Origin: Candidatus Daviesbacteria bacterium
Lineage (GTDB): Bacteria > Patescibacteriota > Microgenomatia > Daviesbacterales > UBA10151
DNA: 64,000 bases
NCBI GenBank assembly: GCA_041690695.1
Contig: JBEPVZ010000003.1
Span: forward strand, 13,633-77,632
Direction of reading: 5' to 3'
Part shown: piece by piece, positions 2,717 to 53,197 of the stretch
How the letters are laid out: every line of letters starts with the position of its first letter
Numbering within the stretch: position 1 is the stretch's first letter
Translations under genes and position numbers: made by a program
Notes under the pieces: generated by a model
What the model was told of the DNA's origin: nothing
The model's input: only the letters and a program-made list of their open reading frames with translations
Database searches by the model: none

Positions 2717-4168
<1,452 letters not shown>

Positions 4169-9574: not shown

Positions 9575-9579
9575 CCAAC

Positions 9580-10173: not shown

Positions 10174-10199
10174 CAACTTTCCTGAGCTTTTTAATAGTC

Positions 10200-12326: not shown

Positions 12327-12383
12327 TCTTAATAACAGAGAACACCTTGACTTGTTCTCCTGATTGTAGGAATAATTAGAGTA

Positions 12384-12836
12384 ATGCAAAAGTCTGCCAA
12401 AGTTAGCTTAATTGTCGGGGGAATAATTCTAGCTCTAGTCTGTTTACTAATTGGCTATTTGTTAGGTAAAAATCAATTTAGAACGATATTTAGACCCTCA
12501 TTTGGTCAATTAGGCGGAATGACTTCTACAAGTCTAACTTCAAGCTTTGCCAGTCAAGCCAGCTTTAACGGTAAAGTCACTCAAATTAAAGACCAGATGG
12601 CGACAGTGTTGACCATGGATAATCAAACTCGAGACTTTACGATCTCAAAATCAGTGGCAGTTTTAGATCCTGCCGCCAAAAAAGTTGCCAGTGTGTCAGC
12701 GAACTCTAAACTAACCACTATTCCGCTAAATCAACCAGCTTTAATTACCGTTCAATTAGTCTTTAGTCGTCAAGGTAACAACACGACATCGGAATACCAG
12801 ATTACTAACGTTTTACTTGCCCCACCAACTCACTAA
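12384..12836 (+). CDS. Small N-terminally membrane-anchored protein (paralog of 9107..9574)
   Basis: TM helix VSLIVGGIILALVCLLIGYLLG. Shares the C-terminal ...YQITNV... motif with 9107..9574. The following giant gene starts 2 nt after its stop. Confidence 0.5.
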   Translation: MQKSAKVSLIVGGIILALVCLLIGYLLGKNQFRTIFRPSFGQLGGMTSTSLTSSFASQASFNGKVTQIKDQMATVLTMDNQTRDFTISKSVAVLDPAAKKVASVSANSKLTTIPLNQPALITVQLVFSRQGNNTTSEYQITNVLLAPPTH

Positions 12837-12838
12837 TA

Positions 12839-15475: not shown

Positions 15476-15476
15476 G

Positions 15477-27273: not shown

Positions 27274-28301
27274 ATCGCTCGCTTAGTATTACCCTCTTTT
27301 TTAACCAATCCCTTTTGTTTTAAAAACTTTAATTCTCTTAAAACTGTATCGTCTGAAAAGTCGGGAAAGATCTTTCGAAAGTCTTTATTACGCATTTCAG
27401 CATGTTTATTTAAATACTCAATAATCGCCATTTGGCGCTCGTTGAGAACAACTTCTTCTCCAAGCTGATCTTTTTGATGACTTTCTGATGCGACCTTTAA
27501 AACGATCTCTTTTAACTTATCAACTTGTATCGCCACGCCCCGACTAAAGTATTCAAGCCACAAAGTTAGATCGCGTTCATGAACATCGAGGACCTTTTGA
27601 TTAGCCGCAGACTGTAAAATTTGATAATATTCAAGCTGTGTGGCTGCGAAGTAGCTCTCTAAGCTTAAAAAACCTTTTAAATCATATTGACCAATTCGAA
27701 GGATTAAATGGCTAAGTAGCCGGCCAACCGCCTCATTATTGCCACTAAAAGGCTGAATTCGATAGATCTCGAAATGAGCAATCGCAGATCTCAAAACCGG
27801 ATGAACTTCAATTGAGACGTCAGAGTTTAACCAATCAATTAAATCATCAATTAAATATGGTATCTCCGCGGCTGGAGGTGGAGAGTAACTAATTTGTCCA
27901 GTCTGGGCATTTCGGATTACTATTTCAGCTTCTCTAAATTGCTCGTCTCCTGAAATCAATCTTTGGAGTTCTAAGACCGTTTCTAGGGTCAAGAAGTTGG
28001 GCCGATCAAGTGAAATTTCAAGTTCATTAACCTCCCGTAAAGCTTTAAACAAGCTTTGATTAAATTGCCAATTTGAATCATCGTTGTTATCTCCGGCAAT
28101 TAACTGGTGAACTTGTTCTTCAGTTAAACTAACTCCTTCTAAAATTGAGCCGTAATAAGTACTGTCAGTTAAAGCTTGATGGCGAAGTTTAGTCAGCCAG
28201 GCTGGAATTAGCTCCGCGTGATTGATAACTTCTCGACCTCCATCAATTGAGCCAATATGCTTAAGAATGGAGTTGGTGATTAAATATTTAGGAATGAACA
28301 T
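27249..28301 (-). CDS. Fic/Doc-family protein with degenerate active-site motif and C-terminal winged HTH
   Basis: HFEIYRIQPFSGNNEAVGRLLSHLIL aligns with HxxxxRIHPFxDGNGRxxRLL, but HPF becomes QPF and GNGR is altered. C-terminal MAIIEYLNKH...VLRELKFLKQKGLV resembles a wHTH. Confidence 0.55.
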   Translation of the reverse strand: MFIPKYLITNSILKHIGSIDGGREVINHAELIPAWLTKLRHQALTDSTYYGSILEGVSLTEEQVHQLIAGDNNDDSNWQFNQSLFKALREVNELEISLDRPNFLTLETVLELQRLISGDEQFREAEIVIRNAQTGQISYSPPPAAEIPYLIDDLIDWLNSDVSIEVHPVLRSAIAHFEIYRIQPFSGNNEAVGRLLSHLILRIGQYDLKGFLSLESYFAATQLEYYQILQSAANQKVLDVHERDLTLWLEYFSRGVAIQVDKLKEIVLKVASESHQKDQLGEEVVLNERQMAIIEYLNKHAEMRNKDFRKIFPDFSDDTVLRELKFLKQKGLVKKEGNTKRAIYVLGVST

Positions 28302-37221: not shown

Positions 37222-39735
37222 ATGCTGACACTGCCTTTTAGATTCTTAAAATTCTATTTCCTTGACGCTGCCCGAACCTGGCTTAGAATGTGGACCAATA
37301 CCATGGCCTTTTTGGAAGAAGATCTGGCTGTTGGTTTAATGCTCAAGTTAATCTTCACCCCCCTTTTTCATGATCGAACGCTGGCTGGCCGATTTTTAAG
37401 TTTTATCTTTCGAGTCACTCGAATTGTCTGGGGGCTTTTTGCTTACTTAGCCGCGACCATCGTCATTTTTGGCTTAACTTTTGTCTGGTTTGCCCATCCT
37501 CTGATTATTATGGGCTGGCCGGAGTATTGGTATGTTAGCTTAGGAATTCTCCTTTTTAGCATCGCTTTATTTATCGATCGAGTGGTTGTTTATCCAAAGC
37601 GACCCCTCCGCCATGCTCAGAATTTAAGTCAGATTTGGGAAACGACCAAGCTTCATAAAAGTGATATTACCTGGGCTAAATTAACTCCGATGTTTGAGGT
37701 TAAGTTGTTGCTAGAGAGCCTCGAGCTAAATCCAACCCAATTTGGAAATTTAGAGATCCCATTTGATGATCAATTAGTTTTACGCGCCACTGAACTAGCC
37801 AGACAATGCAAAGCTCAATACCTAACCGCTGTCTACTTTTGGGTAGCGATGGTTGAGAGAGTTCCCAACCTAGATAACGAACTCTTAAAAGTTAATTTAA
37901 AAATCGATGATTTTCATCAAGCTTTAAACTTTTTTGAACACAAACGAAATACTTGGCGACGAATCTATATTTGGGATGAAGATTTCTCAGTTAGACACTT
38001 AAAAGGAACCAATCGAGGCTGGCTGGCAGCACCGACCCCAGCTTTAGACGCCGCCTCAGTCGATCTAACCAAAGAAGCCGCCCGATTTGGAGTGCCTGAT
38101 TTTATCGGCCGGAAAGAGGTCTTAGATCAAGTTATTAATGTTTTGTCATCAGATGGCAATCATAATTTAGTTTTAGTTGGTCCTGTTGGAACGGGTAAAA
38201 CAGCTTTGGTTAAATATTTGGCCAAGATGATTGTTCAAGGAAATGCTCCAAAATCGATGGCCACCAAGCGACTGGTTTTCCTTGAGCCAGCCCGGTTAAT
38301 GTCTGGCGCCAATAACGAAGGAGAGTTGGCTGAAAAGATTAAAAATGTCTTTGATGAGATTAGTTTTATTGAAGATGTCATTATCTTTATTGATGAGATT
38401 CATACTTTAGGGACTGGTGAGGCTGGGTCAACCTATAACCTATTCTCCTTGCTCGCTCCAGAGCTCGAATCCCAAAATTTTCAGTTTTTAGGTACAACTG
38501 AGCCTGAAAATTACAATCGAACGATTGAAAAAAACGGTTCGTTTGCTCGTATCTTTACCCGAGTTGATATTCCCCCAGCCAGTCCTGAAGAGACGATCGA
38601 GATTCTTCAAAACAGGGCTATTGATATGGAACGTTATCAAAAAACTAAGGTCACATTTTTAGCGATCAAGGAGGTTGTTCATTTAGCTAGCCGGTTTATT
38701 CATGAGCGAGTTTTGCCAGATAGCGCCATTTCAGTTTTGGAAGATTGTCAAACTTTAGTTAAATCTCAAACTGATAAGCAAATTAATCTTAAGCTAGTCC
38801 GCCAAGTTTTAGGCCAGAGAGTCAAAGTTCCAGTTGCCGAAATTAATCCTGATCAAAAGAAACAACTTTTGAATTTAGAAGATCAGATTCATGCTAAGTT
38901 CATCGATCAAGAAGAGGCCGTTAAAGATGTTTCGACAGTCCTCCGCCGAAGTGCGGCCCAACTCCGCGAAACCAATCGGCCAATTGGCTCATTCTTATTC
39001 GTTGGTCCGACTGGTGTTGGAAAAACTGAACTAGCTAAAACCTTATCTGAAGTTTACTTTAAAGGTCGGGATACTTTCGTCCGGTTTGATATGTCAGAGT
39101 ATCAAAATGCTGATTCGGTTAATCGCCTACTTGGCACTGACACAGAGCCAGGTCAACTAACGGAAATTATTTATCATCAACCTTATTGTCTACTGTTACT
39201 CGACGAGTTTGAAAAGGCTCATCCTCAGATTTTAACTCTGTTTTTACAGGTCTTGGACGACGGACGGTTAACCGATGGGGGCGGTAAAACGGTTGATTTT
39301 AGTAATACCATTATTATCGCCACCTCAAATGCGGCTTCGGTTACTATCGCTGAAGGACTTAAGGCCAAAAAACCACTAACTGAGATTAAAGCCACTGTTA
39401 CGGAAGAGCTTTTAAAGATTTATCGTCCAGAGTTAGTCAACCGGTTTGATGAGGTAGTTATCTTTAAACCACTCTCCCCTGAAGATCTTGATAAGGTCGT
39501 AACGATTAAATTGGCTAGTCTTAAAGCTAATCTCAAAGAACAAGGCTACTTGGTTGATTTTGCGCCAGCTTTAGTTGCGGAACTTGGTAAACGAGGCTTT
39601 GATCCGGTCCTAGGTGCCCGACCACTCAGACGATTAATCCAAGACACTTTGGAAGCGAGATTGTCGGTCATGATCTTGGAAGATAAGTTGCCAAAAGGCC
39701 AGCCAACTGAGATCGGGGTAGAAGTTTTAACATGA
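37222..39735 (+). CDS. Clp/Hsp100-family double AAA+ ATPase with N-terminal transmembrane domain
   Basis: Residues ~40-125 form 2-3 hydrophobic helices, followed by a Clp_N-like repeat. AAA1 Walker A LVGPVGTGKTA. AAA2 FVGPTGVGKTELAKTL with Walker B LLLDEFEKAHP. The M-domain is short, and no IGF/LGF ClpP-docking loop was recognised. Confidence 0.8.
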   Translation: MLTLPFRFLKFYFLDAARTWLRMWTNTMAFLEEDLAVGLMLKLIFTPLFHDRTLAGRFLSFIFRVTRIVWGLFAYLAATIVIFGLTFVWFAHPLIIMGWPEYWYVSLGILLFSIALFIDRVVVYPKRPLRHAQNLSQIWETTKLHKSDITWAKLTPMFEVKLLLESLELNPTQFGNLEIPFDDQLVLRATELARQCKAQYLTAVYFWVAMVERVPNLDNELLKVNLKIDDFHQALNFFEHKRNTWRRIYIWDEDFSVRHLKGTNRGWLAAPTPALDAASVDLTKEAARFGVPDFIGRKEVLDQVINVLSSDGNHNLVLVGPVGTGKTALVKYLAKMIVQGNAPKSMATKRLVFLEPARLMSGANNEGELAEKIKNVFDEISFIEDVIIFIDEIHTLGTGEAGSTYNLFSLLAPELESQNFQFLGTTEPENYNRTIEKNGSFARIFTRVDIPPASPEETIEILQNRAIDMERYQKTKVTFLAIKEVVHLASRFIHERVLPDSAISVLEDCQTLVKSQTDKQINLKLVRQVLGQRVKVPVAEINPDQKKQLLNLEDQIHAKFIDQEEAVKDVSTVLRRSAAQLRETNRPIGSFLFVGPTGVGKTELAKTLSEVYFKGRDTFVRFDMSEYQNADSVNRLLGTDTEPGQLTEIIYHQPYCLLLLDEFEKAHPQILTLFLQVLDDGRLTDGGGKTVDFSNTIIIATSNAASVTIAEGLKAKKPLTEIKATVTEELLKIYRPELVNRFDEVVIFKPLSPEDLDKVVTIKLASLKANLKEQGYLVDFAPALVAELGKRGFDPVLGARPLRRLIQDTLEARLSVMILEDKLPKGQPTEIGVEVLT

Positions 39736-40037
39736 TCCTACTTATTCCAATCGGTTTCTGCTTTGGTATTAGTTGGTTTATAGCCACAAATTCTAACGCT
39801 ACAAAGCCGACCAGTTGGTGGAAAGCATTAATAAGATGTTTCATTGTGACATCCCCACTTGCCTTGATTCTAACCTACTTTTTATCTAATATTTGTATCG
39901 ATAGTTGTAGTAACCATCCACTCGATGCGGTAACCAAGATCTTTGGTTTAGTCGTAGGAGTCACTACTTTGCCAATTTATGCTGGCTGGATGGTGGGAGC
40001 GAGAGCGAGAACTAAAACCAAACCTAGCCGACATTAA
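39732..40037 (+). CDS. Small membrane protein (101 aa), translationally coupled to the Clp-like gene
   Basis: ATGA start/stop overlap with the upstream gene. Three hydrophobic segments. Confidence 0.4.
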   Translation: MILLIPIGFCFGISWFIATNSNATKPTSWWKALIRCFIVTSPLALILTYFLSNICIDSCSNHPLDAVTKIFGLVVGVTTLPIYAGWMVGARARTKTKPSRH

Positions 40038-40061: not shown

Positions 40062-41231
40062 ATGCTCAAAAAGCCTAGCTTCAAAACCCCATTAATTGTT
40101 CAAGAAAATCCCAAATTATCAATCTTTGTCGGAGTCTTACTGTTTTTAATCCTGCTCTTCATGGCCTTAATCTTCTTTTTTAAAAACCCTAATCTAGCTT
40201 CTAATTTCTCAAACAATAACTCGACCCCCGTCCAGTTTACCGATGCCCCTAAGGTTCAATTCTTTAATTACAATATCAGCAGTGCTAGCGCAGCCTTAAA
40301 GCCACCTACTCAAGTTAAGTTATATGACTTAAAAACTGATTTTAGTAATAATGAGATTCTAGACTTTGCGAAGAAGCTAGGTTTATCAAGTTATACGCCA
40401 GATAACGGGCCAACAGTAGTCGTTTATAACTATGATGACCCTGCTAATCGGGGCTTAATTCAATTTGATAAAACCACAGGTAGCTTTAGTTACGAATCAT
40501 ATGGAGTTTTAAAACCTTCTATTCAAGCCTCTACCCCTACTCAATCAGCCTTAAACATACTAACGGATCTAAACCTAAATGACTCGACATAGGTCTGTGA
40601 CTACACTTATCAGCGACAAGAAACTACAACTCAAACTTATCTTGAATGACATCATTCATGCGCAAAATTAGGTATGCCATTAACAAGCTTGGCCCAATCT
40701 TTAAATTTAACAGAGGACGAAAAGTTAATCTCAGCTGCACCCGGCAACGTTACAGAAGCGGTCGATGACGACCCGACAATTCAAAACGTCAAACAAAATG
40801 GCTTAGCTCAAGTAGCTAGTAATGGTCGGGCTAGACCAGCTGATTTTAATACTGTCACTGTGGGAGTTAATACCGATGGATCGATTCAAACAATCGTCTC
40901 TAATTTGCGATGGATTACAAGTGCTGACACCTTAGCTTCAAGCCAGTTAATTACTCCCCAAGAAGCACTGACGACATTTAAAAATAACCAGGCCGATATT
41001 GCTATGGTTGTTCCTGAAGGCCGCGGAGTAGTCGATCTGACTAAAGTTTTTCATCATAATACGGCTATTGGCCAAGATGGCAATATTTCTGAATTTCAAT
41101 TGATTTACCTTGAAAAAACCAGCGATACAGCCGAAACTCAATATCTTCCTTACTATTTAATTCGCGGTTACTCGGAGTTAGATTCTGGTTACAATGTTCG
41201 TTTTGCCGAGTTAATCAAAGCTATTAAATAA
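40062..41231 (+). pseudogene. Disrupted paralog of the 45399..46565 gene (frameshift near 40590 plus in-frame TGA near 40650)
   Basis: ORF 40062..40592 matches the N-terminal half of the 388-aa paralog (FDKTTG.FSY.SYG) and ORF 40674..41231 matches the C-terminal half (SRPSDFNTVTVG...YLVYLEK...YYLI.G...SGY.V.F...IK). The gap translates in a shifted frame to VCDYTYQRQETTTQTYLE*HHSCAKLGMPL, aligning to IGCNHSYQQTTLPGVTFVECHRQWDKLGLPL, with TGA at the conserved Cys. Confidence 0.55.
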
Positions 41232-41640
41232 CTATGACAAAACTCGCACTATCACTACCAGGCTTTCAAAATGCGGTCTCAAGTCCTGCTAAAACTCAGT
41301 ATCAGGATCTTGGCTCACTACTTTCAGGTGGTTACTCTATTCTGCTTTTGATTGCTGCCTTTTTAATGGTTTATTGGTTGTCTTGGGGAATCTTTCAATA
41401 CATCTTTGCTGGTGGTGAAAAAGAAAAGTTAGCTCATGCTCGGAAAAGAATTACTTGGGCGATTGTTGGTTTTATCATTATTGTTTTAGCTTTTACGATT
41501 CGTTACTTTGTAGAAGAAGTCTTCCCCCCTCAAAATACATTAACCCAAGTCGATACTCCCCTTAACTATGTCTCAACTGATCTTCAACAACCCCCAACTG
41601 CAGTTCAACAACCTCAAACTGGTGGTACTGGTGGTCAAGC
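41226..41640 (+). repeat. Copy A of a perfect 415-bp direct repeat (copy B at 46560..46974)
   Basis: Identical by direct comparison, from 8 nt upstream of the ATG through codon ~135. Identity ends inside the Gly/Thr-rich linker, where copy A has an extra 21-nt GGTGGQA-type unit. Confidence 0.9.
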
Positions 41641-43237
41641 CGACGGAACAGGCGGCCAAGCTGGTACAAATGGTCAGCAAAATCCCAGCCAACACAGCCC
41701 TATTTTACCAAATGCTCCTGGGGGACCAGCTCAACAGGATCAGATTACAACCAATATTCCTGAAACTTGCCAGCAATATGTTTCAGCTCATGGTTCAGCT
41801 ATAGCCGACATTCAAGGCTATAATCTATCTTTTAATGTTCCTAATTATGGAATATTAAATGTCGCCATGAAAAGTCGAGGTATTTATTTGACTGACGATA
41901 CCCCCGTTACAACGGCACAATCTCAGAGAGAGCAAACTAAAAACGCCTTTTTCCAAGTCATCAAACAACAATATTTAAGAAACTTTGCTTATGATCTGGT
42001 TAAAAGACGGAAAAGAGAAGCTGATCTGGGAGTTGATCCCAAAAATCAGAGTTTTGATATAAATCACAATTTTAATAATACCGATGAGATCAAAACTGAG
42101 TTTAGTAAGTTAGATAATTCGTATAAGTCCACCTTCAATGGTGGTGAACCAGATAGTATTGGTTGTAGCTTTAATCCTGATCCAGGCACTGCTCTATATT
42201 ACCCCGCTCCTTTATATAACTGTACTAAAAATACCCAATTAGATAATGGCATGATTGAGATAATCGCTGATGGAGTTGCCTCAGATTATAAAAACTCGAC
42301 AGTGGCAGAGCGTTACGACTGGGCTAACAAAGTTGAAGATTATAAATTCGGTAATTTAAACTACACCCTTCCTTACTACTTTACTGACTTTATTGCTAAT
42401 CCTTCGAGCACCAATGGTGCATCGTCTGGGGCTGCCAAGGCCTGTTATGTAACTGGATTTGTTCACAACCCGCAATTAGATAATCTAAACCGTCAGGCTA
42501 ACTTTTCTGAGTTTGGTTGCTATGAATTGGCAGTCACAGGGCCTGGCAATTCAGCTATTCCGCTTGAAAACGGCAACTTAAATCAACAAGTTCAAGATTA
42601 TGAGAACTCTGTCGCTTCGCATCAACCTGGTGGGACATCAACAATCAAGGCGACCTTGCCAAACGACGATAAAGCTTTTAAATATGTTGAAGGTGCACCA
42701 GGTCAGACGGTTGATGCAAGTGGTCAAATAATAATTGGGGCGGTCGGCGAACCACTCTATGCACAAGGTACGGGCAATGTTGTTAAAAAGTTATTTCACT
42801 ACGATTACGATACCAGTAAGATTATCTGGAACGACCCAACTAGCTATTATGTTATTCCAAATATTCAAACTGATCCTAATAATCCAAGTTGGAATCCGAT
42901 TATTGATAAAATTGGCCAAGGTTTAGGATTAAACGCGGTCGAGATTACGGCTCTTAAGTTGAGTATGATTCATCACGCTATGTACTTTACTCCCCAGGAA
43001 GCACCTTACCTAAAAATCTCAGTGGTTGATCCTGCTGAAGTCAAGGAAAAAATACCATTAAGTATTGATAGTAGCTATGGTGAGGTTGATCCTAAATCTT
43101 TCCACCGTAATAACTTACTAGTTGAGAAACTAAAAATCGATGACCCCACCTTACATGGTCATGAACCCCAGCTTAAACCTTATCCCGTTTCCCCAACACC
43201 GGTAATTATGTTTGAAACGGGTGTGGCAGTGAGATAA
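41234..43237 (+). CDS. Fusion protein: N-terminal VirB2/TrbC-like (CPR T4SS-pilin-like) two-helix hairpin plus long variable C-terminal ectodomain (667 aa)
   Basis: N-terminal [65 protein letters not shown] has a TM1 / short basic loop / TM2 topology like VirB2/TrbC pilins. It is followed by a GTGGQ-rich linker and a ~500-aa unique region. The first 415 nt are identical to the 46568 gene. Confidence 0.6.
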   Translation: MTKLALSLPGFQNAVSSPAKTQYQDLGSLLSGGYSILLLIAAFLMVYWLSWGIFQYIFAGGEKEKLAHARKRITWAIVGFIIIVLAFTIRYFVEEVFPPQNTLTQVDTPLNYVSTDLQQPPTAVQQPQTGGTGGQADGTGGQAGTNGQQNPSQHSPILPNAPGGPAQQDQITTNIPETCQQYVSAHGSAIADIQGYNLSFNVPNYGILNVAMKSRGIYLTDDTPVTTAQSQREQTKNAFFQVIKQQYLRNFAYDLVKRRKREADLGVDPKNQSFDINHNFNNTDEIKTEFSKLDNSYKSTFNGGEPDSIGCSFNPDPGTALYYPAPLYNCTKNTQLDNGMIEIIADGVASDYKNSTVAERYDWANKVEDYKFGNLNYTLPYYFTDFIANPSSTNGASSGAAKACYVTGFVHNPQLDNLNRQANFSEFGCYELAVTGPGNSAIPLENGNLNQQVQDYENSVASHQPGGTSTIKATLPNDDKAFKYVEGAPGQTVDASGQIIIGAVGEPLYAQGTGNVVKKLFHYDYDTSKIIWNDPTSYYVIPNIQTDPNNPSWNPIIDKIGQGLGLNAVEITALKLSMIHHAMYFTPQEAPYLKISVVDPAEVKEKIPLSIDSSYGEVDPKSFHRNNLLVEKLKIDDPTLHGHEPQLKPYPVSPTPVIMFETGVAVR

Positions 43238-43241
43238 AGTT

Positions 43242-45344
43242 ATGGTCACCAACTCTGCGACAGACCCACTTTCAAAAAATAAGCGTAAATTAAAATTAAT
43301 TTTAATTGGTTTCGGATTACTGGTTATCTTTATACCAATTTCAGCATTCTTAATTAATCATTTTCAAAGGCCATCAACTCCACCTAGCCTAGCCGATTTT
43401 CCACAAATGACCCCATACACTAGTAGTGCCTCGGCCTTTGTAGCTAATCAGTTAATTGTTAAATATAAAGAGGCTTCATCTCCAGCCGAGTTAACGGACA
43501 ACAATGAAAAAGATGCAATTGCCAAGCTCTATGCCGAGCTCGGAGTTTCTTCACAGCTTCAAGCTTATCCTTCAACCGATAACCCAGATCTTAAGGAGTA
43601 CTATCTACTCGAGTTCAAAGCAGGTTCGAGTCTTAGTCTTGCCAAACAGACTCTGTCACAGCTCAAAGAAGTTGAAACCGTCGACCTAAATCCAGTCCTA
43701 AGCTTGCAAGCCACCCAAGTAGCCGGGTTAACTAATGATCTTTACTCTCTATATCAATGGAATTTAGGAAAGATTAATATTGCTCCTGTTTGGAAAGCTG
43801 GTTACCTTGGCTCAGATAAAGTTGGCATAGCAATTTTAGATTCAGGATTAGTTTTTCCTCAAAAGCATCCTGATTTACCCAGCAATATCATTCATGTTAC
43901 AAAACCTGATGACTATAACCAAGCTGCTGAGTTTTATGGAACAGCCCAGAATGACCATGTTCATGGCACTGTTGTAACAGGAATTATTGGTGCGATCAAA
44001 GACAATCATCAAGGTATTAGCGGAGTAAGTCCGATGGTTCAGATATATTCTTATCAAGTTTGTCGAAATGAAGAGTGTGATAGCTTAGCAGCTAGCCAAG
44101 CCCTCGAGTCTATCGCTCAATCCCCTGGCAAGGTTAAAGTAGTCAACTTAAGTTTAGGAGCTCCTAGCCAATCGACACCTTCAGAACCAGTTTGCCCCGA
44201 TTGGGTACAAGGACCAATTAACGATCTAACCAGTAAAGGCATTCTAGTCGTAGCCGGAGTTGGGAATGGTGATTTTACCACTGGTAATCGAGTTGGAATT
44301 GATGCCAAAAACTTTATTCCAGCCTCATGCAAAGGAGTTTTAGGTGTAGCTGCAACTAATGCCAATGACCAAAAAGCTTCATATTCAAATTATGGATCGG
44401 TGGCAAAAATTTCAGCACCGGGAGGTGAGAACGAGGCCAATGGTGCAATTTTATCGACAATTCCATTTGGAGATATTCCTAAGGATGGTCAGCTCGGGCC
44501 TTATGGAAAATATTTCGGCACATCGATGGCTACACCCCAAGTTAGTGCCGTCGCCGCTTTATTGTTTTCAGCCAATCCCGACTTAACTGTCGATAAGATT
44601 AAACAATGTTTAACTGAGGGAGGAGATCCAGTAAGCAACTTAGATCCTAAACAACCAATTGGTCCAAGATTGAACGCCGCTGGAGCTTTTAATACTTGTG
44701 GAATTCAAATCGCAAACACAACCACAGCTGATGCTAAAACAGCAACTCCACCGGTCATCCAACCCGCCCAGCCAAAAACTCCACCTCCTCCCCCGCCACC
44801 GGTCGTTTCAAAAAGTATATTACCCACTCTCCCATCAACCAACACTCCAACTACCCAAACCCCAACGAGTGTTGACTTACCCTCTGCCCTCTTTAAAGAA
44901 GTTAAAGTTGACCCTGAACAAGGCCAACTTAACGCTTTAATTACTGCCAATGTAGCTTTGTCTAATACCCAAACTCATCAGTACAAATTCCACTGGTGTG
45001 CCAATCCAACGGATATCGCGCCTCACCAGATCTGTAACGACATCACTAATTACTTTAACTTTCAAAGAGCTCCATCCGATGGACCGACTCCCAATACCAT
45101 TTTAAATGATCAGATTATTGGTCAATTTAGTCCTTCTTTGATCTGGCAGCCTTCAATTGCAATATCGGACAGAACAACTGGTAATGCTATTTATGGAAAC
45201 TATATTCTTGAAGTTGATGCCTGTAACAAGCAACCTGATGGAACCTGTCAGAACTCCAACAAACAAGATGTTTGTAGCGTTATTCAATACGATGAGTGCG
45301 TTAATTATGATCATTACAATGTCATCTTTCAACTAAACCCCTAA
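43242..45344 (+). CDS. Membrane-anchored subtilisin-like serine protease (peptidase S8) with conserved C-terminal 6-Cys domain
   Basis: N-terminal TM anchor. I9-like propeptide region. Catalytic triad context AILDSG (Asp), HGTVVTG (His), [16 protein letters not shown] (Ser). The C-terminal ~150 aa ([11 protein letters not shown]...DECVNYDH) are shared with the 48777 gene. Confidence 0.8.
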   Translation: MVTNSATDPLSKNKRKLKLILIGFGLLVIFIPISAFLINHFQRPSTPPSLADFPQMTPYTSSASAFVANQLIVKYKEASSPAELTDNNEKDAIAKLYAELGVSSQLQAYPSTDNPDLKEYYLLEFKAGSSLSLAKQTLSQLKEVETVDLNPVLSLQATQVAGLTNDLYSLYQWNLGKINIAPVWKAGYLGSDKVGIAILDSGLVFPQKHPDLPSNIIHVTKPDDYNQAAEFYGTAQNDHVHGTVVTGIIGAIKDNHQGISGVSPMVQIYSYQVCRNEECDSLAASQALESIAQSPGKVKVVNLSLGAPSQSTPSEPVCPDWVQGPINDLTSKGILVVAGVGNGDFTTGNRVGIDAKNFIPASCKGVLGVAATNANDQKASYSNYGSVAKISAPGGENEANGAILSTIPFGDIPKDGQLGPYGKYFGTSMATPQVSAVAALLFSANPDLTVDKIKQCLTEGGDPVSNLDPKQPIGPRLNAAGAFNTCGIQIANTTTADAKTATPPVIQPAQPKTPPPPPPPVVSKSILPTLPSTNTPTTQTPTSVDLPSALFKEVKVDPEQGQLNALITANVALSNTQTHQYKFHWCANPTDIAPHQICNDITNYFNFQRAPSDGPTPNTILNDQIIGQFSPSLIWQPSIAISDRTTGNAIYGNYILEVDACNKQPDGTCQNSNKQDVCSVIQYDECVNYDHYNVIFQLNP

Positions 45345-45398
45345 TAAAAACGAGTCTTTATCCTTGCCTGAAAGTCGATTAGGTGGTAAGTTTAGTAT

Positions 45399-46565
45399 GT
45401 GCTAAAAACTGTTCAAGACTGGGCTCGGGCTAATAAGTTATTATTCAGTTTAAGCGCAGGTGGGCTTATTTTAATTCTGATTCTGGGAATAGTCACTCTT
45501 GTTTTGAAACTTAATCAGTCTCACACCACTCCCACTTCTACTAAATCATCATCACAATCAACTAGTCTGCCGACCTATCCCGCTCCAGCTGTGAAATTTA
45601 ATAGCTACCAGATCAGTGATGCCGCTAAAGCTTTGAAAGTGCCTGATCAAGTTAAACAATACCTCTTAAGAGCCCATTTTTCAGACTCAGACGTTAAAGC
45701 TTTTAGCAGAGCTTTTGGTTTAAATGACTATTACCTGGATGAATCTGGCCAAGCAGTCGCCTCAAACGTTAGTGATGTTAATAACCAAGGCTTAATGAAT
45801 TTTGATAAAACGACCGGCTTTTTTAGCTATCGATCTTACGGTTTAATTCAACCATCGGCTTCGTCTTCAGGCACAATTAATGCAGCGGTCAGTTATTTGA
45901 GCGATGTTGGATTGACTGATCCGACGATTGGTTGCAACCATAGCTACCAACAAACCACTCTTCCAGGCGTAACTTTCGTTGAATGTCATCGTCAGTGGGA
46001 CAAGCTCGGCTTACCACTGGTGAACTTACCAGGCGTTCTCAATATTCCTGAAAATCAAACTTTTACCGCTACTCGACCAGGCGATGTCGCTGAATTCTCA
46101 CTCCTTGACCCCTCTATCGCTAGCGTTAGTGCTTATGGAGTCTTAAAACCAACGGACAATGGTAAATCTCGGCCCTCAGATTTTAATACTGTCACAGTTG
46201 GGCTTTGGGGTGGAACTAATATTTATAGTTTATCTTCAAATCTGCGAACGATTATCTCCTCATCAGTTGTGACAAACTTATTAACTCCCGATGAAGCTCT
46301 CCAAGCTTTTAAAGATCAAAAAGCCGAGGTTTCTTTAACCCTGCCGACCGGTCAAGGCTCGTTTGACTTTGCTAAAGCTTATCCTAATAACCAGGCCCTA
46401 GCCCAAACAGCCACCATTAATAAACTCTATCTCGTTTACCTTGAAAAACCCCATGACCAGGCTCAAACTGACTACTCACCCTATTATTTAATTCAAGGCA
46501 CCGCCAATTTAAGCAGCGGTTATACAGTCAAATTTGTTCAAGTGCTATCAGCCATTAAAAAATAA
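45399..46565 (+). CDS. TM-anchored protein of unknown function (388 aa), intact paralog of pseudogene 40062..41231
   Basis: N-terminal TM helix LLFSLSAGGLILILILGIVTLVL. Conserved blocks FDKTTGFFSYRSYG, SRPSDFNTVTVG, YLVYLEKPHDQAQTDYSPYYLIQG. No known domain recognised. Confidence 0.5.
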   Translation: MLKTVQDWARANKLLFSLSAGGLILILILGIVTLVLKLNQSHTTPTSTKSSSQSTSLPTYPAPAVKFNSYQISDAAKALKVPDQVKQYLLRAHFSDSDVKAFSRAFGLNDYYLDESGQAVASNVSDVNNQGLMNFDKTTGFFSYRSYGLIQPSASSSGTINAAVSYLSDVGLTDPTIGCNHSYQQTTLPGVTFVECHRQWDKLGLPLVNLPGVLNIPENQTFTATRPGDVAEFSLLDPSIASVSAYGVLKPTDNGKSRPSDFNTVTVGLWGGTNIYSLSSNLRTIISSSVVTNLLTPDEALQAFKDQKAEVSLTLPTGQGSFDFAKAYPNNQALAQTATINKLYLVYLEKPHDQAQTDYSPYYLIQGTANLSSGYTVKFVQVLSAIKK

Positions 46566-46974
46566 CTATGACAAAACTCGCACTATCACTACCAGGCTTT
46601 CAAAATGCGGTCTCAAGTCCTGCTAAAACTCAGTATCAGGATCTTGGCTCACTACTTTCAGGTGGTTACTCTATTCTGCTTTTGATTGCTGCCTTTTTAA
46701 TGGTTTATTGGTTGTCTTGGGGAATCTTTCAATACATCTTTGCTGGTGGTGAAAAAGAAAAGTTAGCTCATGCTCGGAAAAGAATTACTTGGGCGATTGT
46801 TGGTTTTATCATTATTGTTTTAGCTTTTACGATTCGTTACTTTGTAGAAGAAGTCTTCCCCCCTCAAAATACATTAACCCAAGTCGATACTCCCCTTAAC
46901 TATGTCTCAACTGATCTTCAACAACCCCCAACTGCAGTTCAACAACCTCAAACTGGTGGTACTGGTGGTCAAGC
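46560..46974 (+). repeat. Copy B of the perfect 415-bp direct repeat (copy A at 41226..41640)
   Basis: See copy A. Confidence 0.9.
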
Positions 46975-48757
46975 TGGTACAACTCATGCCGCTCCGGTTG
47001 TAGTAACTAATCCTGGCACACTAGAATCATTACCCCACAATACAGATGGTAGCCCCAAGATTAGCTTCAGCTGTAGCGCCAGCCCTCAAACCATTAATTA
47101 TGATGACACTTTGACCGTCACCACCACTAATAGCCATCCCCAGGGTATTAATATCTTTATTGATAATAATACTCAAAATGCTGGCTCACTGAGTCCGATC
47201 ACAACCCAATCGACCACAAATAAAAATGTTTATAACATCGGCTTTAAGGCCCAGTTACAATATAACCCTCTCTACGCTCCACCTTATAATCACACCTTAA
47301 TTTTAGTTGATAATGGCAATCCGGCCATCTCAGAAAGCTGTACTTTTAACGTCAGCCCTCAAACGAGTTGTTTAAATGGGGACAAGAACGAAGTCTCAAC
47401 ATTTTCGATCAACTTACCCGACTTCGGAAACTATAATGTTACTTACTCAACACTCGGGACAACCACTGAAAATGCGGGCAGAGCGGCTGGGGTGGTTACT
47501 TCATTTTTTACCGACAAACCATCAAATTTAAGTAATAATCCGACTCTCTTAAATAGCCTCAGAGAAGCCATTTACAAGCGAGTTGAAGACCAATACGTCA
47601 TTAATGTCGCCGCCTTCCTGGTGAGAGTTAATCAAAATATCTCTCGGCCGCTACCAGCCAAAGGCTCGGTTGATGAAGCGAATGCAGTCGCAGCTCTTAA
47701 AAACTTAGATTTCAATCATCAAGATACTAAATTCACCAGCCTTGACCAACTCACTAATATCAAAAGTCCTAACGATATCTTGTCACTTTTTTCAAGCGAG
47801 TGTAAGTTTCAGGAACAGGGTGGAACGATGCCGTATTATCAGTGCAATCCTCAAACCATCGGCGACTATGGTGATCCAGGTTTAAGCAATCGGGTTAACC
47901 AAACTGCCCAAGACGTCGCGAGTAGAGTCTTTACCTTAATAAATAGTAATCCAAACGATATTATTGCGGCCTTAACTCCTACCGCAAATCAACCAGCTTT
48001 ATTTGTCGGTCGACCGATGAGTAATATCTATGAATCATTAATTACTCCTAATATTTCTGATCCTAATCCCAACAATGCTAATTTAGCTTTGGGGAATGAT
48101 CTAATAACCCAAAGAGGTATTAACCCAGGTCCTAATCTAGTTGACCTTTATCCTAAAACAGTCAGCCAGCTTCAATCCTGTTTTATAACCGGGGTGACTT
48201 TAAATTCACCGAGCTTATTCTTATACACCCAGATACCCCAATCAGTTAAAGTCACCACCCAATCCCAGGTTGGCTACTCAGACCCAGCCACAAATGATAA
48301 CAGCTGGAATGTCACCACTTCCCCCTCTGGCCAAGTGACAACAGATAATAATATTGAGCGAGATTATCTCTATTATGAATATAAGAGGGCCAGTGTTAGC
48401 TTTAACCAGCCCAACACCGGTTATATTGTCACAAGATCTGACTGGCAAAATTTAATCCGCAATACTATTGCTAAAGGTTTAGGACTTAATCAAAAAGAGA
48501 CTGACCGCATGATTAGTGAAGTTAGTAATGCTTTAGTCGGCTCTTCAAATTCACCATATTTAAGAATCTCATTGATTGATCAAGCCGAATTAAATTCTCA
48601 ATTGCCACTCCATTTCTCAACTCAGCCTGATCATCTCTATCGCTTCCACCTCATGGTCAGCTCTGTTCAGGCACCAGCTTCAATTCCCGAGCCCACTCTA
48701 AAAACGGTCGAGCGCTTAGGTTTTACCGCCATCGAGCTGGGTGCGGTCTACCGCTAA
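46568..48757 (+). CDS. Fusion protein: VirB2/TrbC-like pilin N-domain plus different variable C-terminal ectodomain (729 aa)
   Basis: The first ~135 aa are identical to the 41234 product. The downstream ~590 aa are unrelated in sequence to the 41234 C-terminus, and Asn/Thr/Ser-rich. Confidence 0.6.
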   Translation: MTKLALSLPGFQNAVSSPAKTQYQDLGSLLSGGYSILLLIAAFLMVYWLSWGIFQYIFAGGEKEKLAHARKRITWAIVGFIIIVLAFTIRYFVEEVFPPQNTLTQVDTPLNYVSTDLQQPPTAVQQPQTGGTGGQAGTTHAAPVVVTNPGTLESLPHNTDGSPKISFSCSASPQTINYDDTLTVTTTNSHPQGINIFIDNNTQNAGSLSPITTQSTTNKNVYNIGFKAQLQYNPLYAPPYNHTLILVDNGNPAISESCTFNVSPQTSCLNGDKNEVSTFSINLPDFGNYNVTYSTLGTTTENAGRAAGVVTSFFTDKPSNLSNNPTLLNSLREAIYKRVEDQYVINVAAFLVRVNQNISRPLPAKGSVDEANAVAALKNLDFNHQDTKFTSLDQLTNIKSPNDILSLFSSECKFQEQGGTMPYYQCNPQTIGDYGDPGLSNRVNQTAQDVASRVFTLINSNPNDIIAALTPTANQPALFVGRPMSNIYESLITPNISDPNPNNANLALGNDLITQRGINPGPNLVDLYPKTVSQLQSCFITGVTLNSPSLFLYTQIPQSVKVTTQSQVGYSDPATNDNSWNVTTSPSGQVTTDNNIERDYLYYEYKRASVSFNQPNTGYIVTRSDWQNLIRNTIAKGLGLNQKETDRMISEVSNALVGSSNSPYLRISLIDQAELNSQLPLHFSTQPDHLYRFHLMVSSVQAPASIPEPTLKTVERLGFTAIELGAVYR

Positions 48758-48776
48758 GATGTGATACCTTTAGGTT

Positions 48777-51700
48777 ATGTCTGAACCAAACACTCCTAGT
48801 CCTATCGTAGCTCCACCATCGACTCAAGCGTCCTCACCTCATACAAGTAAACTAGCGTTTTTTAAAACTCATAAAAAACTCGCCATTATTGGGGGCTATG
48901 TACTGGTTTTAATTTTAATTCCTTTAATATTTCTGGCGATCTCAGGTCAAAAAAAACAGCCGCAGACTAGTCCAACGGAGCTCGAAGTCGTTATACCTAA
49001 ACCAGGCGCCGCCAATCAGCCAAAGGTTGTTGCGGACGAGCTGATTGTTAAGTACAAGGCTGGCCAATCGCTTAATGAAGCCAGTTCTGCGGCCAATATC
49101 TTGCCTCTTCAAACCGCTGAGCAAGCTGCAGGCATGGCTAGCCAAGAGCCACTTTATCTCTCAGATGACCCTAGTTTAAAAGAGTTTTACGTTTTTAAGC
49201 TCAAAAATGGCACCAATTTAGATCAATCTCGAAAAGCCTTAGCTCAACTTCCCCAAATTGAATCAGTTGAAGTCAACCCGATTCTGTCACTACAAGAGCA
49301 AAATCAGGTCACGATGTCAGTTGCACCTAATGATTACTTTTATCCCCAACAATGGAACTTACAAAAGATTCAGATCGAGAAGGTCTGGCAACAATATACT
49401 TTAGGTTCAAAAGACGTTTCGATCGCCTTAATTGATGGCGGAGTTGATCCGACTCATCCTGATCTTCCTCGAGATATTACGATCGGTAAAAACTTTATTA
49501 GCGATTCCCAAACGGATCATGACCACGCCACCGGCTTAGCTGGAATTATGGTCGCTCAAACCAATAATAAGATTGGTATTAGCGGGATTAGCCCGGGAGT
49601 TCATTTAGTCTCTTTTCAAGCTTGTAGTGATTTAGATCCTCAATTTTGTAGCATGGTTTCGATCGATCGGGCAATTGAGACCGCTGCAAATACTAAAGGG
49701 GTCAGAGTTATTAATATCAGTATTGAGGGCGAAAATACCCAAGATGGGGTTAATATCGGTTGCCCAAGCTTTACCCAAGCTTCAATCACTAAGGCCACTC
49801 AGGCCGGAGTGCTGGTCGTCGCTAGCTCTGGTAATGGCATTGATAATCATGGTAAAGCGGTTGATGCCAAAAGCATGAATATTGGAACTTGTGTCGGCGT
49901 TTTAATGGTTGGGGCGACTACCATTACCAAAAATGGCGATCAAGAAGTTGAGAAACGAGCTAACTATTCAAATTACGGATCCTCAGTTAAATTATCCGCT
50001 CCAGGTGGAAGCATTCCAGATCCAAGTAATCCAAACGATCCGCTTAATCATGGTATTATCTCGCTTGGCAAAACCAAACCCGATCAAAAAGGTCCACGCT
50101 ACACCCAAGCTTCTGGAACTTCAGATGCTGCCCCTGAAGTTAGTGCCGTTGCGGCGCTGCTCTTCTCAGTCAAACCCAGCTTAACCGCCGAACAAGCCAC
50201 AGATTGTTTAATTCAAGGCGCTGATACTATTCAAACTGATTTGCCGATTGGTCCAAGATTAAACGCTCTGGGAGCATTTAAAGCTTGTGGGATTAAGCCA
50301 ACTAATTATCCATCAGCTAATTCGGCTCCAACAGTCACACCTACAATCACCCTCTCCCCCTCTGACACAGTCACTGAAGGCAGTAATATTCAAATAACCT
50401 CAAATTTAAATGGCGAGATCGGTCAATTAGTCGCATTTAAATTGTGTTTTGAAGGCCCGGATAAATCTAACTTAAACTCTGACAAGAGCTGTTCTGGATT
50501 AATTGCCGGAACAACTTTACCGGCCCAAGCCATTAATAAAAGCTATGGCTATTACCAAGTTTATGGAATGAGTTGTCAAACAACCGGTAGCGCCCCAAGC
50601 TTGACCTGTGATCCCACTGTTCGACCAACCCAAGAGGCATGGAGCCAGCCGATTCAATTAGTCAAAGCTGGCAGCACCGGTGGGACTGGTGGCACCACCA
50701 CCCAACCTTCCACCACTCAGACTGGTCTGAATAAGATTCAACACATTATCATCATGGTCAAAGAGAACCATACCTTTGATAACTATTTTGGAACATTCCC
50801 TGGCGCCAATGGCACCACCACCTACCCTGGCCCAGATGGTAATCCGAAACCGTTGGCCCATGATCCTGATTCTTTACTAAATGATATTAATCACGATCCA
50901 GCCGCCGCTCACCTAGCTTACGATTCTGGCAAAATGGATAATTTCAAAAATATTCCAGGAGCAATCCAAGATGGTCATGACTATTCTGATGGCCAATATT
51001 ATCAGGCTGATATTCCAAATTATTGGGCTTACGCTCAAAAATATACTTTACATGATAACTTTTTTACCAACATCCTTGGACCGAGCTTTGAAAATCATCT
51101 TTTAACTATCGCTGGAGATAATCCTAGCAATGTCGATGGTAATCCCCAAGGCGATACTAATCCCAACCACAACAATGGTGCCGGGGTTTGGGGATGTGAT
51201 TCAGCTTCCAATACCCAAGTCGAGAAACGAGATGGCAATGGTAGTATCACTACGACTTATCCCTGTTTTGACTTGCCAACTTTAGGCGATAGTCTAAATA
51301 AAGCTAATATCTCTTGGAAATATTATGCCCCAGCCCAAAACCAGCCCGGTTATCAATGGTCTGCCTACGATGCTATTAAAGGTATCCGAAATTCAGATCA
51401 ATGGTCTACGCATGTTGTTGACTCTGACCAGTTCCAAAAAGATGCTGCTAGTGGTAATTTACCAGCCGTTAGCTGGCTAGTTCAACCGTTTGACGTTAGT
51501 GATCACGCACCTTCGAGTGTCTGTCAAGGTGAAAACTGGACAGTCGATCAGATGAACGCGATTATGGGTAATTCGAACTCATGGGATAACTCAGTCGTAA
51601 TCTTAACTTGGGACGATTTTGGGGGCTTTTACGACCATGTTACCCCTCCCAAAGGACCTAATGGCGAGATTATGGATGGCTTTAGAGTTCCAGCCTTAAT

Positions 51701-52640
51701 TATCTCCCCTTATGCTAAACCAGGCTTTATTGATCATACTCAAAACACCTTTTCATCGATTCTTAAATTCGTCGAGAATCGCTATGGTTTACCACCTCTT
51801 GGCTCTCTTGATAGTGCGGCAACCGATTTCAGTAGCTCACTTGATTTCAATCAAACCCCACTCTCAGCTCTAACCTTAAAAACCAGAAGTTGTCCAGCCA
51901 CAACTCAAGAGAAATCAGGATCAGCCACGACTCCTGTTCCACCCGTCAAGACTCCTCCGACCACTCCACCGTCAAGCTGCTTAATCAAGATTGGACCACT
52001 CTGTATTCCGAGTTTGCCTAAAATTACTTTTCCGACCTTACCAAAGATTGATCCATCCGCAATTTGTAAAGTTCTTCATACCTGTTCGAACCCCAAACCA
52101 GACACAAACACTTCACCCGCCAGCTCATCGGCCACCCAAACTAACCCACCTCCAGCTCAAAACCAATCTAGTGTCGATTTACCTTCGGCTCTCTTTAAAA
52201 CAGTTAAAGTCACACCTGAGGATGGCAAGCTTGATAGCTTAATTAGCGCCGACATTAATTTATCAAACACCCAGTCTCATCAATATAAATTCCATTGGTG
52301 TGCTAGCCCAGCTAATATTGCTCCTCATGAGATCTGTAACAATATTACTAACTATTTTAACTTTGCCAGAACCGATCCAGCGACAGGCACAATTGTTAAT
52401 GATCATATTACCGGCCAATTTAGCCCATCCTTAATTTGGAATCCTGATATCGTAGTTTCCAATCGCGCTCCAACCAACGCCTATTATGGAACATATTTCC
52501 TTGAAGCCGACGTCTGTAATACTCAACCCAATGGCAAATGTAATAACTCTAAAAATGAGGATGTTTGTAGCATTATCCGAAATGATGAGTGTGTTAATTA
52601 TGACCATTTCTCGGTCAAGTTTAATTTAAACCAACAATGA
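48777..52640 (+). CDS. Membrane-anchored multidomain enzyme: S8 subtilisin plus phosphoesterase (phospholipase C / acid phosphatase family) plus shared C-terminal 6-Cys domain (1287 aa)
   Basis: S8 motifs [13 protein letters not shown] (Asp), DHATGLAG (His), [16 protein letters not shown] (Ser). Central [23 protein letters not shown] matches the phosphoesterase-family ENRSFDHYFG motif. C-terminal ~150 aa are homologous to the 43242 C-terminus. The TGA stop overlaps the ATG of the next gene. Confidence 0.8.
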
Positions 52641-53197
52641 CAAAATTAGCCTTATCACTTCCAGGTTTCTCAGACGCGATTGATAGTCCGACCAAACAAG
52701 CTAAACCTCAATTTCAAGATCTTGGTTCCCTACTGTCTGGTGGATACAGTATCTTACTTTTGATTGTCGCTTTTTTAATGGTTTATTGGTTGTCTTGGGG
52801 AATCTTTCAATACATCTTTGCGGGTGGTGAGAAAGAAAAGTTAGCTCATGCCAAAAAGCGAATTACCTGGGCAATTGTCGGTTTTATAATCGTGGTTTTA
52901 GCATTTACGATTCGAGGGTTTGTCGAAGAAACATTTACCCCTCAAAACACCCTAACTCCCGTTAGTGTCCCCGGAGCCGTTTCGCCCAATCAAGCTCAAG
53001 GTAATTCGGGCAATAGTGGAGGTGGCACGACTGGCGGCGGAGTCAATCCGGGTAGTGGTACTGGAAACACTGGCAATCCTAATCAAGGCCAGCCTGGTGG
53101 AGGAGCTGGAAATGGCGGGTCACTTAGCTTGCCTGGTAGTGGTGGGACCTTTAAAGTTCAGGGTTATATTCCTGGCCAACACCTATTATCAAATTAA
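52637..53197 (+). CDS. Short VirB2/TrbC-like pilin-family protein with Gly-rich C-terminal tail (186 aa)
   Basis: The N-terminal 110 aa are ~85% identical in protein to the pilin-like N-domains of 41234/46568. The tail is [40 protein letters not shown]. Confidence 0.55.

Follow-up and report, generated by a model that had tools for sequence, protein, structure and literature searches.

A complete pilin reading frame between the two halves of a conserved surface-protein gene in Candidatus Daviesbacteria

This report concerns a locus at positions 40062 to 53197 of a 64-kb stretch of contig JBEPVZ010000003.1 from Candidatus Daviesbacteria (the whole analyzed stretch is hereafter called the window). 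The locus holds eight reading frames, all on one strand, that fall into two consecutive gene sets, A1-B1-C1 and A2-B2-C2, followed by a last gene, B3. A first description made by eye (the original prediction) took the locus for a tandemly duplicated three-gene module made of a membrane-anchored protein (gene A), a pilin-like protein fused to a large ectodomain (gene B), and an anchored subtilisin (gene C). We found that gene A and the ectodomain of gene B (ECTO) are joined in a single protein, A-ECTO, in relatives, and that a complete pilin open reading frame (ORF) sits in the interdomain linker of both A-ECTO paralogs of this locus. The locus is better described as the capture of a pilin inside a conserved gene, together with lineage-specific protease partners.

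Gene A and the ectodomain of gene B are one protein in relatives

The view of gene A as a transmembrane (TM)-anchored protein without a recognizable domain held up, since hydropathy analysis placed a single N-terminal TM segment in A1 and A2 (and likewise in C1 and C2) and gene A had no match in Pfam or NCBIfam. A word-index protein search with A2 returned only A2 itself. An exhaustive HMMER search of 1.84 billion representatives with a gene A profile yielded 275 homologs, and we examined the best 150. In nearly all of these, the A domain forms the first ∼390 aa of a protein of 700 to 885 aa, and the C-terminal halves of the four homologs that we read end like B2 (...YxKISL...LPL...R.H...GFTVVELG). 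A jackhmmer search from the B2 ectodomain was run on the homologs with their A domain removed, as the full-length run also matched sequences that consist of the A half only (for example, P0016). An ECTO-like C-terminal half was found in all 137 homologs of this set that extend at least 150 aa beyond the A domain. One of them, P0025, matches both window genes, with residues 48 to 375 aligning to A2 (E = 4e-73) and residues 455 to 858 aligning to B2 252 to 727 (E = 1.6e-43). None of the best 150 homologs contains a pilin domain, and a TM-like segment past residue 100 occurs in only one of them.

The same picture was obtained from gene neighborhoods. A scan of species-representative genomes gave 24 loci, those with a name being from Levyi-, Davies-, Roizman-, and Gottesmanbacteria metagenome-assembled genomes (MAGs), and A and ECTO form one ORF of 680 to 880 aa in about 19 of them. 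Gene A and the ectodomain of gene B, originally taken for separate genes of a module, are thus two halves of one ∼700- to 880-aa protein in relatives, which means that the apparent fusion arose when a pilin ORF entered an A-ECTO gene.

Both window copies belong to this family. A2, which has the FVECHRxW and RPxDFNT motifs of the A domain behind its N-terminal TM segment, matches the A-domain profile at 6e-145 and takes part in 31 invariant columns. The ECTO profile matches B2 at 3e-86 and B1 in two segments (aa 137 to 408 and aa 516 to 665; 6e-8 and 6e-13), so that both are members, by profile, of the family that ends in ...YxxISL...LPL...R.H...G.T..E.G, and the trimmed alignment contains invariant ECTO columns common to B1 and B2. 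The two domains share a polypeptide in relatives; in both copies of the window, the halves are separated by a stop codon and a pilin ORF. When 14 A-domain homologs and 20 ECTO homologs were scanned with Pfam, no family was retrieved. A-ECTO is a widespread Microgenomates surface-protein family, with 275 representatives, that has no annotation and no Pfam model.

Structural models point to an A domain built of tandem PepSY-like modules lying outside the membrane, a likeness at the level of the fold rather than of the family; the Pfam PepSY family had no match in the 14 A-family members. The AF2 model of B2 is confident only in the last ∼185 aa.

The linker (for instance, aa 395 to 440 of P0017 and aa 390 to 470 of P0018) contains a motif, (L/Q)(Q/K)(L/G)xTF, in 76 of the 137 A-ECTO homologs; the window copies lack it. 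It is preceded by VAG in 40 of the 137, and in 55 an AxA-Q/E-like string resembling a signal-peptidase site stands before it. The motif could be a processing site or the vestigial signal peptide of an older gene fusion. Eight contigs labeled as MAGs of "uncultured Gammaproteobacteria bacterium" (L005, L007, L011, L013, L015, L023, L024, and L026) also carry A-ECTO of the Microgenomates type, and those labels are probably wrong.

Layout of the locus

The coordinates below, the gene order, and the tight junctions all agree with the original prediction when re-derived from the sequence. All features are on the forward strand.

37222-40037 (+): upstream context, a 101-aa membrane protein preceded by a Clp-type AAA+ ATPase (837 aa, named by eye only)
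40062-41231 (+): A1, pseudogenized A half comprising the TM anchor and the A domain, in pieces of 176 and 185 aa
41226-41640 (+): 415-nt tract, copy 1, 100% identical to 46560-46974
41234-43237 (+): B1 (667 aa), pilin hairpin at aa 1-109, linker, ECTO domain to aa 667
43242-45344 (+): C1 (700 aa), membrane-anchored S8 subtilase with a 6-Cys C-terminal domain
45399-46565 (+): A2 (388 aa), intact A half, TM segment at aa 11-41 plus a predicted extracellular tandem PepSY-like domain
46560-46974 (+): 415-nt tract, copy 2, 100% identical to copy 1
46568-48757 (+): B2 (729 aa), pilin hairpin at aa 1-109, linker, private insert at ∼aa 140-265, ECTO at ∼aa 252-729
48777-52640 (+): C2 (1287 aa), membrane-anchored S8 subtilase with a phosphoesterase and a 6-Cys C-terminal domain
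52637-53197 (+): B3 (186 aa), stand-alone pilin, Gly-rich tail; the C2 stop and the B3 start overlap (ATGA)

The A/B junction reads TAA-CT-ATG in both modules. The B1 stop is followed by the C1 start after 4 nt (TAA-4 nt-ATG), B2 and C2 are separated by a 19-nt gap, and C2 and B3 overlap by ATGA. A2 starts at a GTG codon, a choice backed by homology to the MLK start of A1. A scan for promoters and terminators gave no signal higher than expected from shuffled sequence.

The pilin cassette is identical in two otherwise diverged modules

In both copies, the inserted cassette consists of the TAA stop, 2 nt, an ATG, a two-helix hairpin, and a Q/P/G-rich tail that has no stop of its own and continues in frame into ECTO. 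One 415-nt tract takes in the TAA of gene A, the 2-nt spacer, the entire pilin domain with its ATG, and the first part of the Q/P/G-rich linker. This tract is identical at 415 of 415 positions between 41226-41640 and 46560-46974, and identity falls at once to ∼50% in the flanks on both sides. Right after the tract, the B1 linker bears a 21-nt tandem duplication (GGQADGT/GGQAGT, window 41614-41669); with this indel removed, the identity between B1 and B2 runs 9 nt further.

Sequence comparison confirmed the tandem duplication, with homology between the modules far above chance. A1b matches A2 at E = 3e-50 (A1 and A2 being 41 to 44% identical), and C1 matches C2 at E = 3.5e-81 over the protease part and at 9.6e-69 over the C-terminal 167 aa (63% identity). 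B1 and B2 are 100% identical over their first 127 aa (E = 3.9e-83) and 24% identical over their ectodomains (E = 5.6e-12). The two long pilin fusions are real, as first described, but their ectodomains are related to each other rather than unrelated.

Synonymous sites are saturated between the modules, with a proportion of differences (pS) of 0.72 to 0.80 in A, the S8 domain, the Cys domain, and ECTO, and the ratio of nonsynonymous to synonymous substitution rates (dN/dS) is ∼0.19 to 0.24 where it can be calculated. Together, these values indicate that the duplication is old and that the genes have been under constraint. The identical pilin tracts inside modules that are otherwise saturated indicate recent gene conversion. 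We considered whether the cassette was recently copied, by homologous recombination, into a module-2 paralog that was still unsplit, and rejected this scenario for want of flanking homology. Most simply, a single insertion before the paralogs diverged would have been followed by repeated conversion of the sole segment still similar enough to recombine. The most likely order of events is that the split predates the duplication of the paralogs and that the pilin segments were then kept identical by gene conversion.

B2 also contains a specific, Cys-containing insert of ∼125 aa between the pilin linker and ECTO (window 46985-47360, ∼aa 140-265). This insert occurs neither in B1 nor in the aligned homologs and was modeled with low confidence; it may be a small beta-rich domain.

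A1 was correctly recognized as a pseudogene. It can be read through in a single frame, without frameshift, across an in-frame TAG and an in-frame TGA, the latter falling at the nearly invariant Cys196. A1 keeps 24 of the 31 family-invariant residues, and the seven lost ones cluster around the FVECHRxW motif. Stop-codon recoding was discarded as an explanation, because the two stops differ, one of them falls at a conserved Cys, and invariant residues nearby have been lost.

The hairpins of B1, B2, and B3 are VirB2-like pilin domains

The assignment of the N-terminal hairpins to the VirB2-like pilins of the Candidate Phyla Radiation (CPR) was borne out by profile searches. Against the type IV secretion system (T4SS) pilin family PF18895 (T4SS_pilin), B1, B2, and B3 scored 31.5, 31.3, and 36.9 bits, respectively, above the Pfam gathering cutoff of 26.6. 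All three also match the NCBIfam Mbov_0395 pilin-like family, B3 reaching 40.0 bits with NF045849, which equals the cutoff. Each has two TM segments by hydropathy, at ∼aa 26-55 and 71-96 in the pilin domain, joined by a short Lys/Arg-rich loop. The pilin segment of B1 and B2, from the first Met through the Pro-rich tail, aligns with its 11 closest homologs, which are stand-alone pilins of 103 to 152 aa. It retains all invariant columns of the stand-alone pilin alignment and is 44 to 56% identical to pilins of Microgenomates and Daviesbacteria. B3 is 84% identical to this segment at the protein level and 77% at the nucleotide level. Between B1 and B3, dS is 1.15 and dN/dS is 0.12, and by this comparison the B1/B2 segment is under purifying selection relative to B3.

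In size and setting, these genes depart from the usual pilins. With 667, 729, and 186 aa, B1, B2, and B3 exceed the ∼100 to 150 aa of the usual small stand-alone pilins. In relatives, close homologs of the pilin segment stand in arrays of five or six genes, at most ∼10 kb from PrgI-like and TraC-like genes, an arrangement of pilin arrays within reach of T4SS genes that has been described for Patescibacteria (PMC12102498). B1 to B3 lie neither in such an array nor near virB4 within the window. The statement that no T4SS ATPase is nearby was upheld: Pfam scans of 48 window ORFs, all large ones included, found none of the VirB4, VirD4, VirB6, and VirB11 families, nor any other T4SS family.

Large C-terminal extensions are unusual among related pilins

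To place the two fusions among related pilins, we used the pilin alignment in a metagenome scan that gave 36 loci; with the loci obtained earlier added, the sample comprises 139 distinct ORFs that have a pilin domain, those of the window not counted. The claim that long pilin fusions are unusual was supported, as a comparable soluble C-terminal ectodomain was found in none of the 139. A C-terminal extension of more than 100 aa occurs in one of them, from locus L027, and this is a polytopic membrane protein. Unannotated extensions of 165 to 415 aa at the N-terminus, which leave the hairpin at the C-terminus, are found in 20 ORFs, typically the first gene of an array. These array-leading proteins (in loci L029 to L058) are 287 to 477 aa long, with the hairpin in the C-terminal ∼70 aa (for example, L029 2444-3505, L036 6471-7781, and L038 6094-7527), and may be large or tip pilins specific to their arrays. 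Six further ORFs of 210 to 241 aa are tandem double pilins (L039 2177-2848, L043 560-1231, L046 8001-8642, L048 734-1426, L050 276-908, and L059 588-1313), either fused neighboring pilin genes or products of sequencing read-through. A literature search that included full texts returned no description of large C-terminal fusions to VirB2. Big proteins built on a pilin hairpin do occur, but none in our sample has the orientation or the partner seen here.

The C genes encode anchored subtilases with a private C-terminal domain

C1 and C2 were predicted to be anchored S8 subtilisins, and this was confirmed by Peptidase_S8 matches in Pfam (E = 8e-46 and 1e-36, respectively), by the motifs of the catalytic context, and by the single N-terminal TM segment of each protein. 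The context patterns for the catalytic Asp, His, and Ser are those of PROSITE. C1 consists of a TM segment (aa 15-41), a prodomain (∼aa 56-164), the S8 domain (aa 193-458; IAILDSG, HGTVVTG, and GTSMATP), a P/T-rich linker, and a 6-Cys domain (aa 531-700) with Cys at 586, 598, 661, 669, 678, and 686. C2 has its TM segment at aa 33-60, the S8 domain at aa 212-482 (IALIDGG, HATGLAG, and GTSDAAP, the His context being recognized with a relaxed pattern only), a phosphoesterase domain at aa 654-1006, and a 6-Cys domain at aa 1121-1287. The C-terminal 6-Cys domain is indeed shared, with six Cys at conserved spacing and 63% identity between C1 and C2. The additional phospholipase C-like phosphoesterase of C2 was equally well founded: PF04185 matches over its full length (model positions 1-356 of 356, E = 1.2e-64), and sequence matches in the PDB include an acid phosphatase (2d1g, 5e-25) and a phospholipase C (9gye, 1.5e-23). 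The I9-like propeptide could not be established; PF22148 (Fervidolysin_NPro-like) scored 19.0 and 15.7 bits against a cutoff of 21, and no I9 match was listed. Scores against the named S8 subfamilies were far below their cutoffs (105 to 108 bits for mycosin, against 279). The Cys and phosphoesterase domains were found in no other fetched locus, loci that had not been chosen to reveal them.

Neighborhoods of A-ECTO in relatives

Clustering of neighbors across the 24 loci identified no conserved neighbor of A-ECTO. The S8 protease proved not to be a conserved partner, since it is directly adjacent in one of the 24 other loci (L010) and within 10 kb in four. At L010, the S8 gene overlaps the end of the A-ECTO gene, and the C-terminal part of its product has no match to the Cys-domain profile. 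Directly upstream of A-ECTO, the Gottesmanbacteria loci L018 and L019 carry a Clp-type ATPase of the same family (f3) as the window, which points to the ancestral position of the A-ECTO gene. Locus L017 has two tandem A-ECTO paralogs.

Two further loci offer comparisons. At L006 (2365-8587), 29 nt separate an intact A-ECTO gene (804 aa) from a downstream gene for a 111-aa pilin, after which come a 702-aa membrane protein and a further protein whose C-terminus matches ECTO and whose N-terminus is not an A domain; this is possibly an intermediate of, or a parallel to, the window arrangement. At L026 (9956-12603), an independent clean split has given a 371-aa A protein and, after a 2-nt gap, a 509-aa ECTO protein that opens with a signal-peptide-like segment (MKNTHINKFIVVVTTVLVFSYGVSAQ). 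This clean split shows that the A and ECTO halves can exist as separate exported chains.

Surroundings of the locus in the window

Upstream of A1, the start of the 101-aa membrane protein overlaps the stop of the ATPase gene, and a Pfam scan of this protein gave no match. Probable surface proteins are also encoded in a second cluster of genes on one strand, at 9107-16406 (+). It comprises proteins of 155 aa and 197 aa (the latter with a Cohesin domain, E = 5e-9), then of 708, 150, 878, and 326 aa, and these last four had no Pfam match. Neither this cluster nor the other unknown proteins of the window showed similarity to ORFs of the fetched T4SS or pilin loci. The 16S rRNA gene (2719-4170, −) and tRNA-Ile (531-605, −) stand ∼2.1 kb apart; the interval holds a tRNA-Cys on the opposite strand (1720-1792) and ORFs of 247 and 335 aa, neither with a Pfam match, and is not a canonical 16S-tRNA-23S spacer. 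A DNA ligase (24687-26450, −), a GGDEF-domain protein (26506-27273, +), and a Fic-domain protein (27249-28301, −) are also present, the ligase being ATP dependent, of the archaeal/eukaryotic type, with all three domains. The Pfam scans of the window ORFs otherwise found housekeeping genes; the flanking Clp-like and PolA-like genes were named by eye only.

Interpretation of the locus

On balance, we lean toward a lineage-specific rearrangement in which a pilin ORF split both A-ECTO paralogs and its hairpin took over the export and anchoring of ECTO, within a surface set that includes the hydrolases. In this arrangement, the A half ends at the new stop, and ECTO is translated as a separate protein that starts with the pilin hairpin. 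The hairpin would insert with both ends outside and the Lys/Arg-rich loop inside, thus giving ECTO the export signal and the membrane anchor that it lost on separation from the A half. The same export problem appears to have been met at L026 by a signal peptide. A2 may then be co-expressed with both ECTO proteins on their pilin anchors and with both anchored hydrolases as a surface set, probably used for contact with, or for degradation and scavenging of, the envelope of a host or substrate. Both fusion ORFs have remained open over 667 and 729 codons despite synonymous saturation, and they have long been under constraint.

Several points weigh against this rearrangement scenario or parts of it. 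All of the evidence for the arrangement comes from one contig, and the six proteins that we looked up (A2, B1, B2, B3, C1, and C2) are all singleton clusters. The age of the insertion was derived from divergence only, as no close relative was found. Module 1 may be in the course of being lost, given that A1 has decayed and that the ECTO domain of B1 is far more diverged than that of B2. The pairing with an S8 protease is not conserved. No fold or family could be assigned to ECTO, which makes host contact a guess from context. Finally, a generic anchor would not need all of the pilin-invariant residues, a consideration that favors display on a pilus.

Under pilus display, the main rival, which we regard as unlikely, B1 and B2 would be minor or tip pilins of a T4SS whose machinery places the 500- to 600-aa ECTO on a VirB2-type pilus as an adhesin or enzyme, B3 being the major or spacer pilin. 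Besides the complete set of invariant residues in a hairpin under purifying selection, the free pilin B3 is of the same subfamily (84% identical) and appears to be co-transcribed at the end of the locus. The arrays of relatives are often led by a large pilin protein (20 of the 139 ORFs), so that big domains are tolerated in T4SS loci. Against such display, the 64-kb window contains no VirB4/TraC, VirB6/PrgI, or VirD4, whereas close homologs lie within ∼10 kb of TraC and PrgI, and the extension is C-terminal here but N-terminal in relatives. The ordinary signal peptide used by the split at L026 suggests that export alone was required. Judging by the known structures of the F- and T-pilus, moreover, the helical VirB2 lattice would not accommodate subunits that each bear a 500-aa domain. 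On the other side, VirB2-like arrays are known in Patescibacteria (PMC12102498), and VirB2-like pilins are essential in Southlakia epibionticum (PMC10633639). A bolder version, to which we give little credence, holds that B1 and B2 work as T4SS pilins and bring large ectodomains onto a CPR conjugative-type pilus and that the 415-nt cassettes act as a constant region at which recombination can swap, duplicate, or delete alternative ectodomain-protease units. If true, the bacterium could in this way change the surface that its pilus shows to different hosts.

The conserved three-gene module of the original prediction, duplicated in tandem and with proteases that process the pilin fusions, now seems improbable. 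The two modules do share gene order and tight junctions, C1 and C2 share their private C-terminal domain (63% identity), and the S8 gene of L010 overlaps the end of A-ECTO. Genes A and B are nevertheless one gene in relatives, A-ECTO has no conserved neighbor, and the C-terminal region of the L010 protease is unrelated to the Cys domain. An S8 gene within 10 kb at 4 of 24 loci is modestly above chance as we roughly guessed rather than computed it, and we saw no sign of a processing site. The synteny data largely refute the three-gene unit as a conserved module, and any role of the proteases in processing the pilin fusions or in attacking a host is pure inference.

We also weighed a neutral accident, in which a pilin gene broke a surface-protein gene and the fusion ORFs are nonfunctional remnants of a decaying locus. 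The two stops and lost invariant residues of A1, the weak conservation of the B1 ECTO, and the singleton clusters of the six proteins are what such decay would leave. Nonetheless, we judge it highly doubtful, since the 667- and 729-codon ORFs are open and in frame despite saturation, with a dN/dS of ∼0.2, B1 and B2 keep the ECTO-invariant residues, and start/stop coupling is intact throughout.

An assembly artifact is scarcely credible: assemblers can mis-join contigs or collapse variants at exact repeats such as the 415-nt one in this MAG, yet a chimera would need two in-frame joins at the homologous linker position with outer flanks only ∼50% identical, the consistent A-pilin-ECTO-S8 order would have to arise as well, and a swap of the downstream parts at the repeat would leave the architecture unchanged.

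These observations define the A-ECTO family, with its 275 representatives and a confident PepSY-like model for the N-terminal half, and they show a route, the capture of a whole pilin ORF in the linker of a conserved two-domain gene, by which a large surface protein can acquire a pilin hairpin as its N-terminal module. Few systems have been shown to be essential for Patescibacteria to live as epibionts, and VirB2-like pilins and the T4SS belong to these. If the hairpin of B1 and B2 is only an anchor, the locus is a clean natural case in which domain capture made good a gene fission. If the hairpin still engages a T4SS, B1 and B2 would be, among the sampled loci and in the full-text literature searched, the first VirB2-type pilins found with a large C-terminal cargo, and they would indicate a means by which the pili of CPR bacteria might offer adhesins or enzymes to hosts.

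Comparison with known systems

In their strong HMM (hidden Markov model) matches and catalytic contexts, and in the full-length phosphoesterase of C2, C1 and C2 resemble membrane-anchored or secreted subtilases and the PlcH/AcpA phosphoesterases (PF04185). They differ from known subtilases in combining an N-terminal TM segment, a prodomain, an S8 domain, a phosphoesterase (in C2), and a private 6-Cys domain, a combination not seen elsewhere in our data. The A domain resembles, in predicted fold only, PepSY-type domains, namely, the C-terminal part of YpeB (5boi), YycH/YycI (2fgt and 2o3o), and the propeptides of M4/M36 peptidases (3nqz and 4k90), at ∼10% identity.

The array-leading large pilin proteins of relatives are like B1 and B2 in that a big non-pilin domain is joined to the same type of hairpin. 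In those proteins, however, the extension is N-terminal and the genes lie within pilin arrays, and the A and ECTO profiles found no homology to them. With the VirB2-like pilins of Patescibacteria, B1 to B3 share the HMM score, the two-helix hairpin, the basic loop, and the invariant residues of the closest subfamily. The known members are ∼100 to 150 aa long and form arrays of 2 to 11 genes beside virB4, whereas B1 and B2 carry C-terminal ectodomains of 558 and 620 aa, inside the reading frame of another family and with no T4SS gene in the 64-kb window. That other family is A-ECTO. A2 and the decayed A1 correspond to the N-terminal half of the A-ECTO relatives (for example, P0017, P0019, and P0025), and the ectodomains of B1 and B2 correspond to their C-terminal half, with invariant residues kept; what is a single polypeptide with one N-terminal TM segment in those relatives is divided, in the window, into two genes by an intervening pilin ORF.

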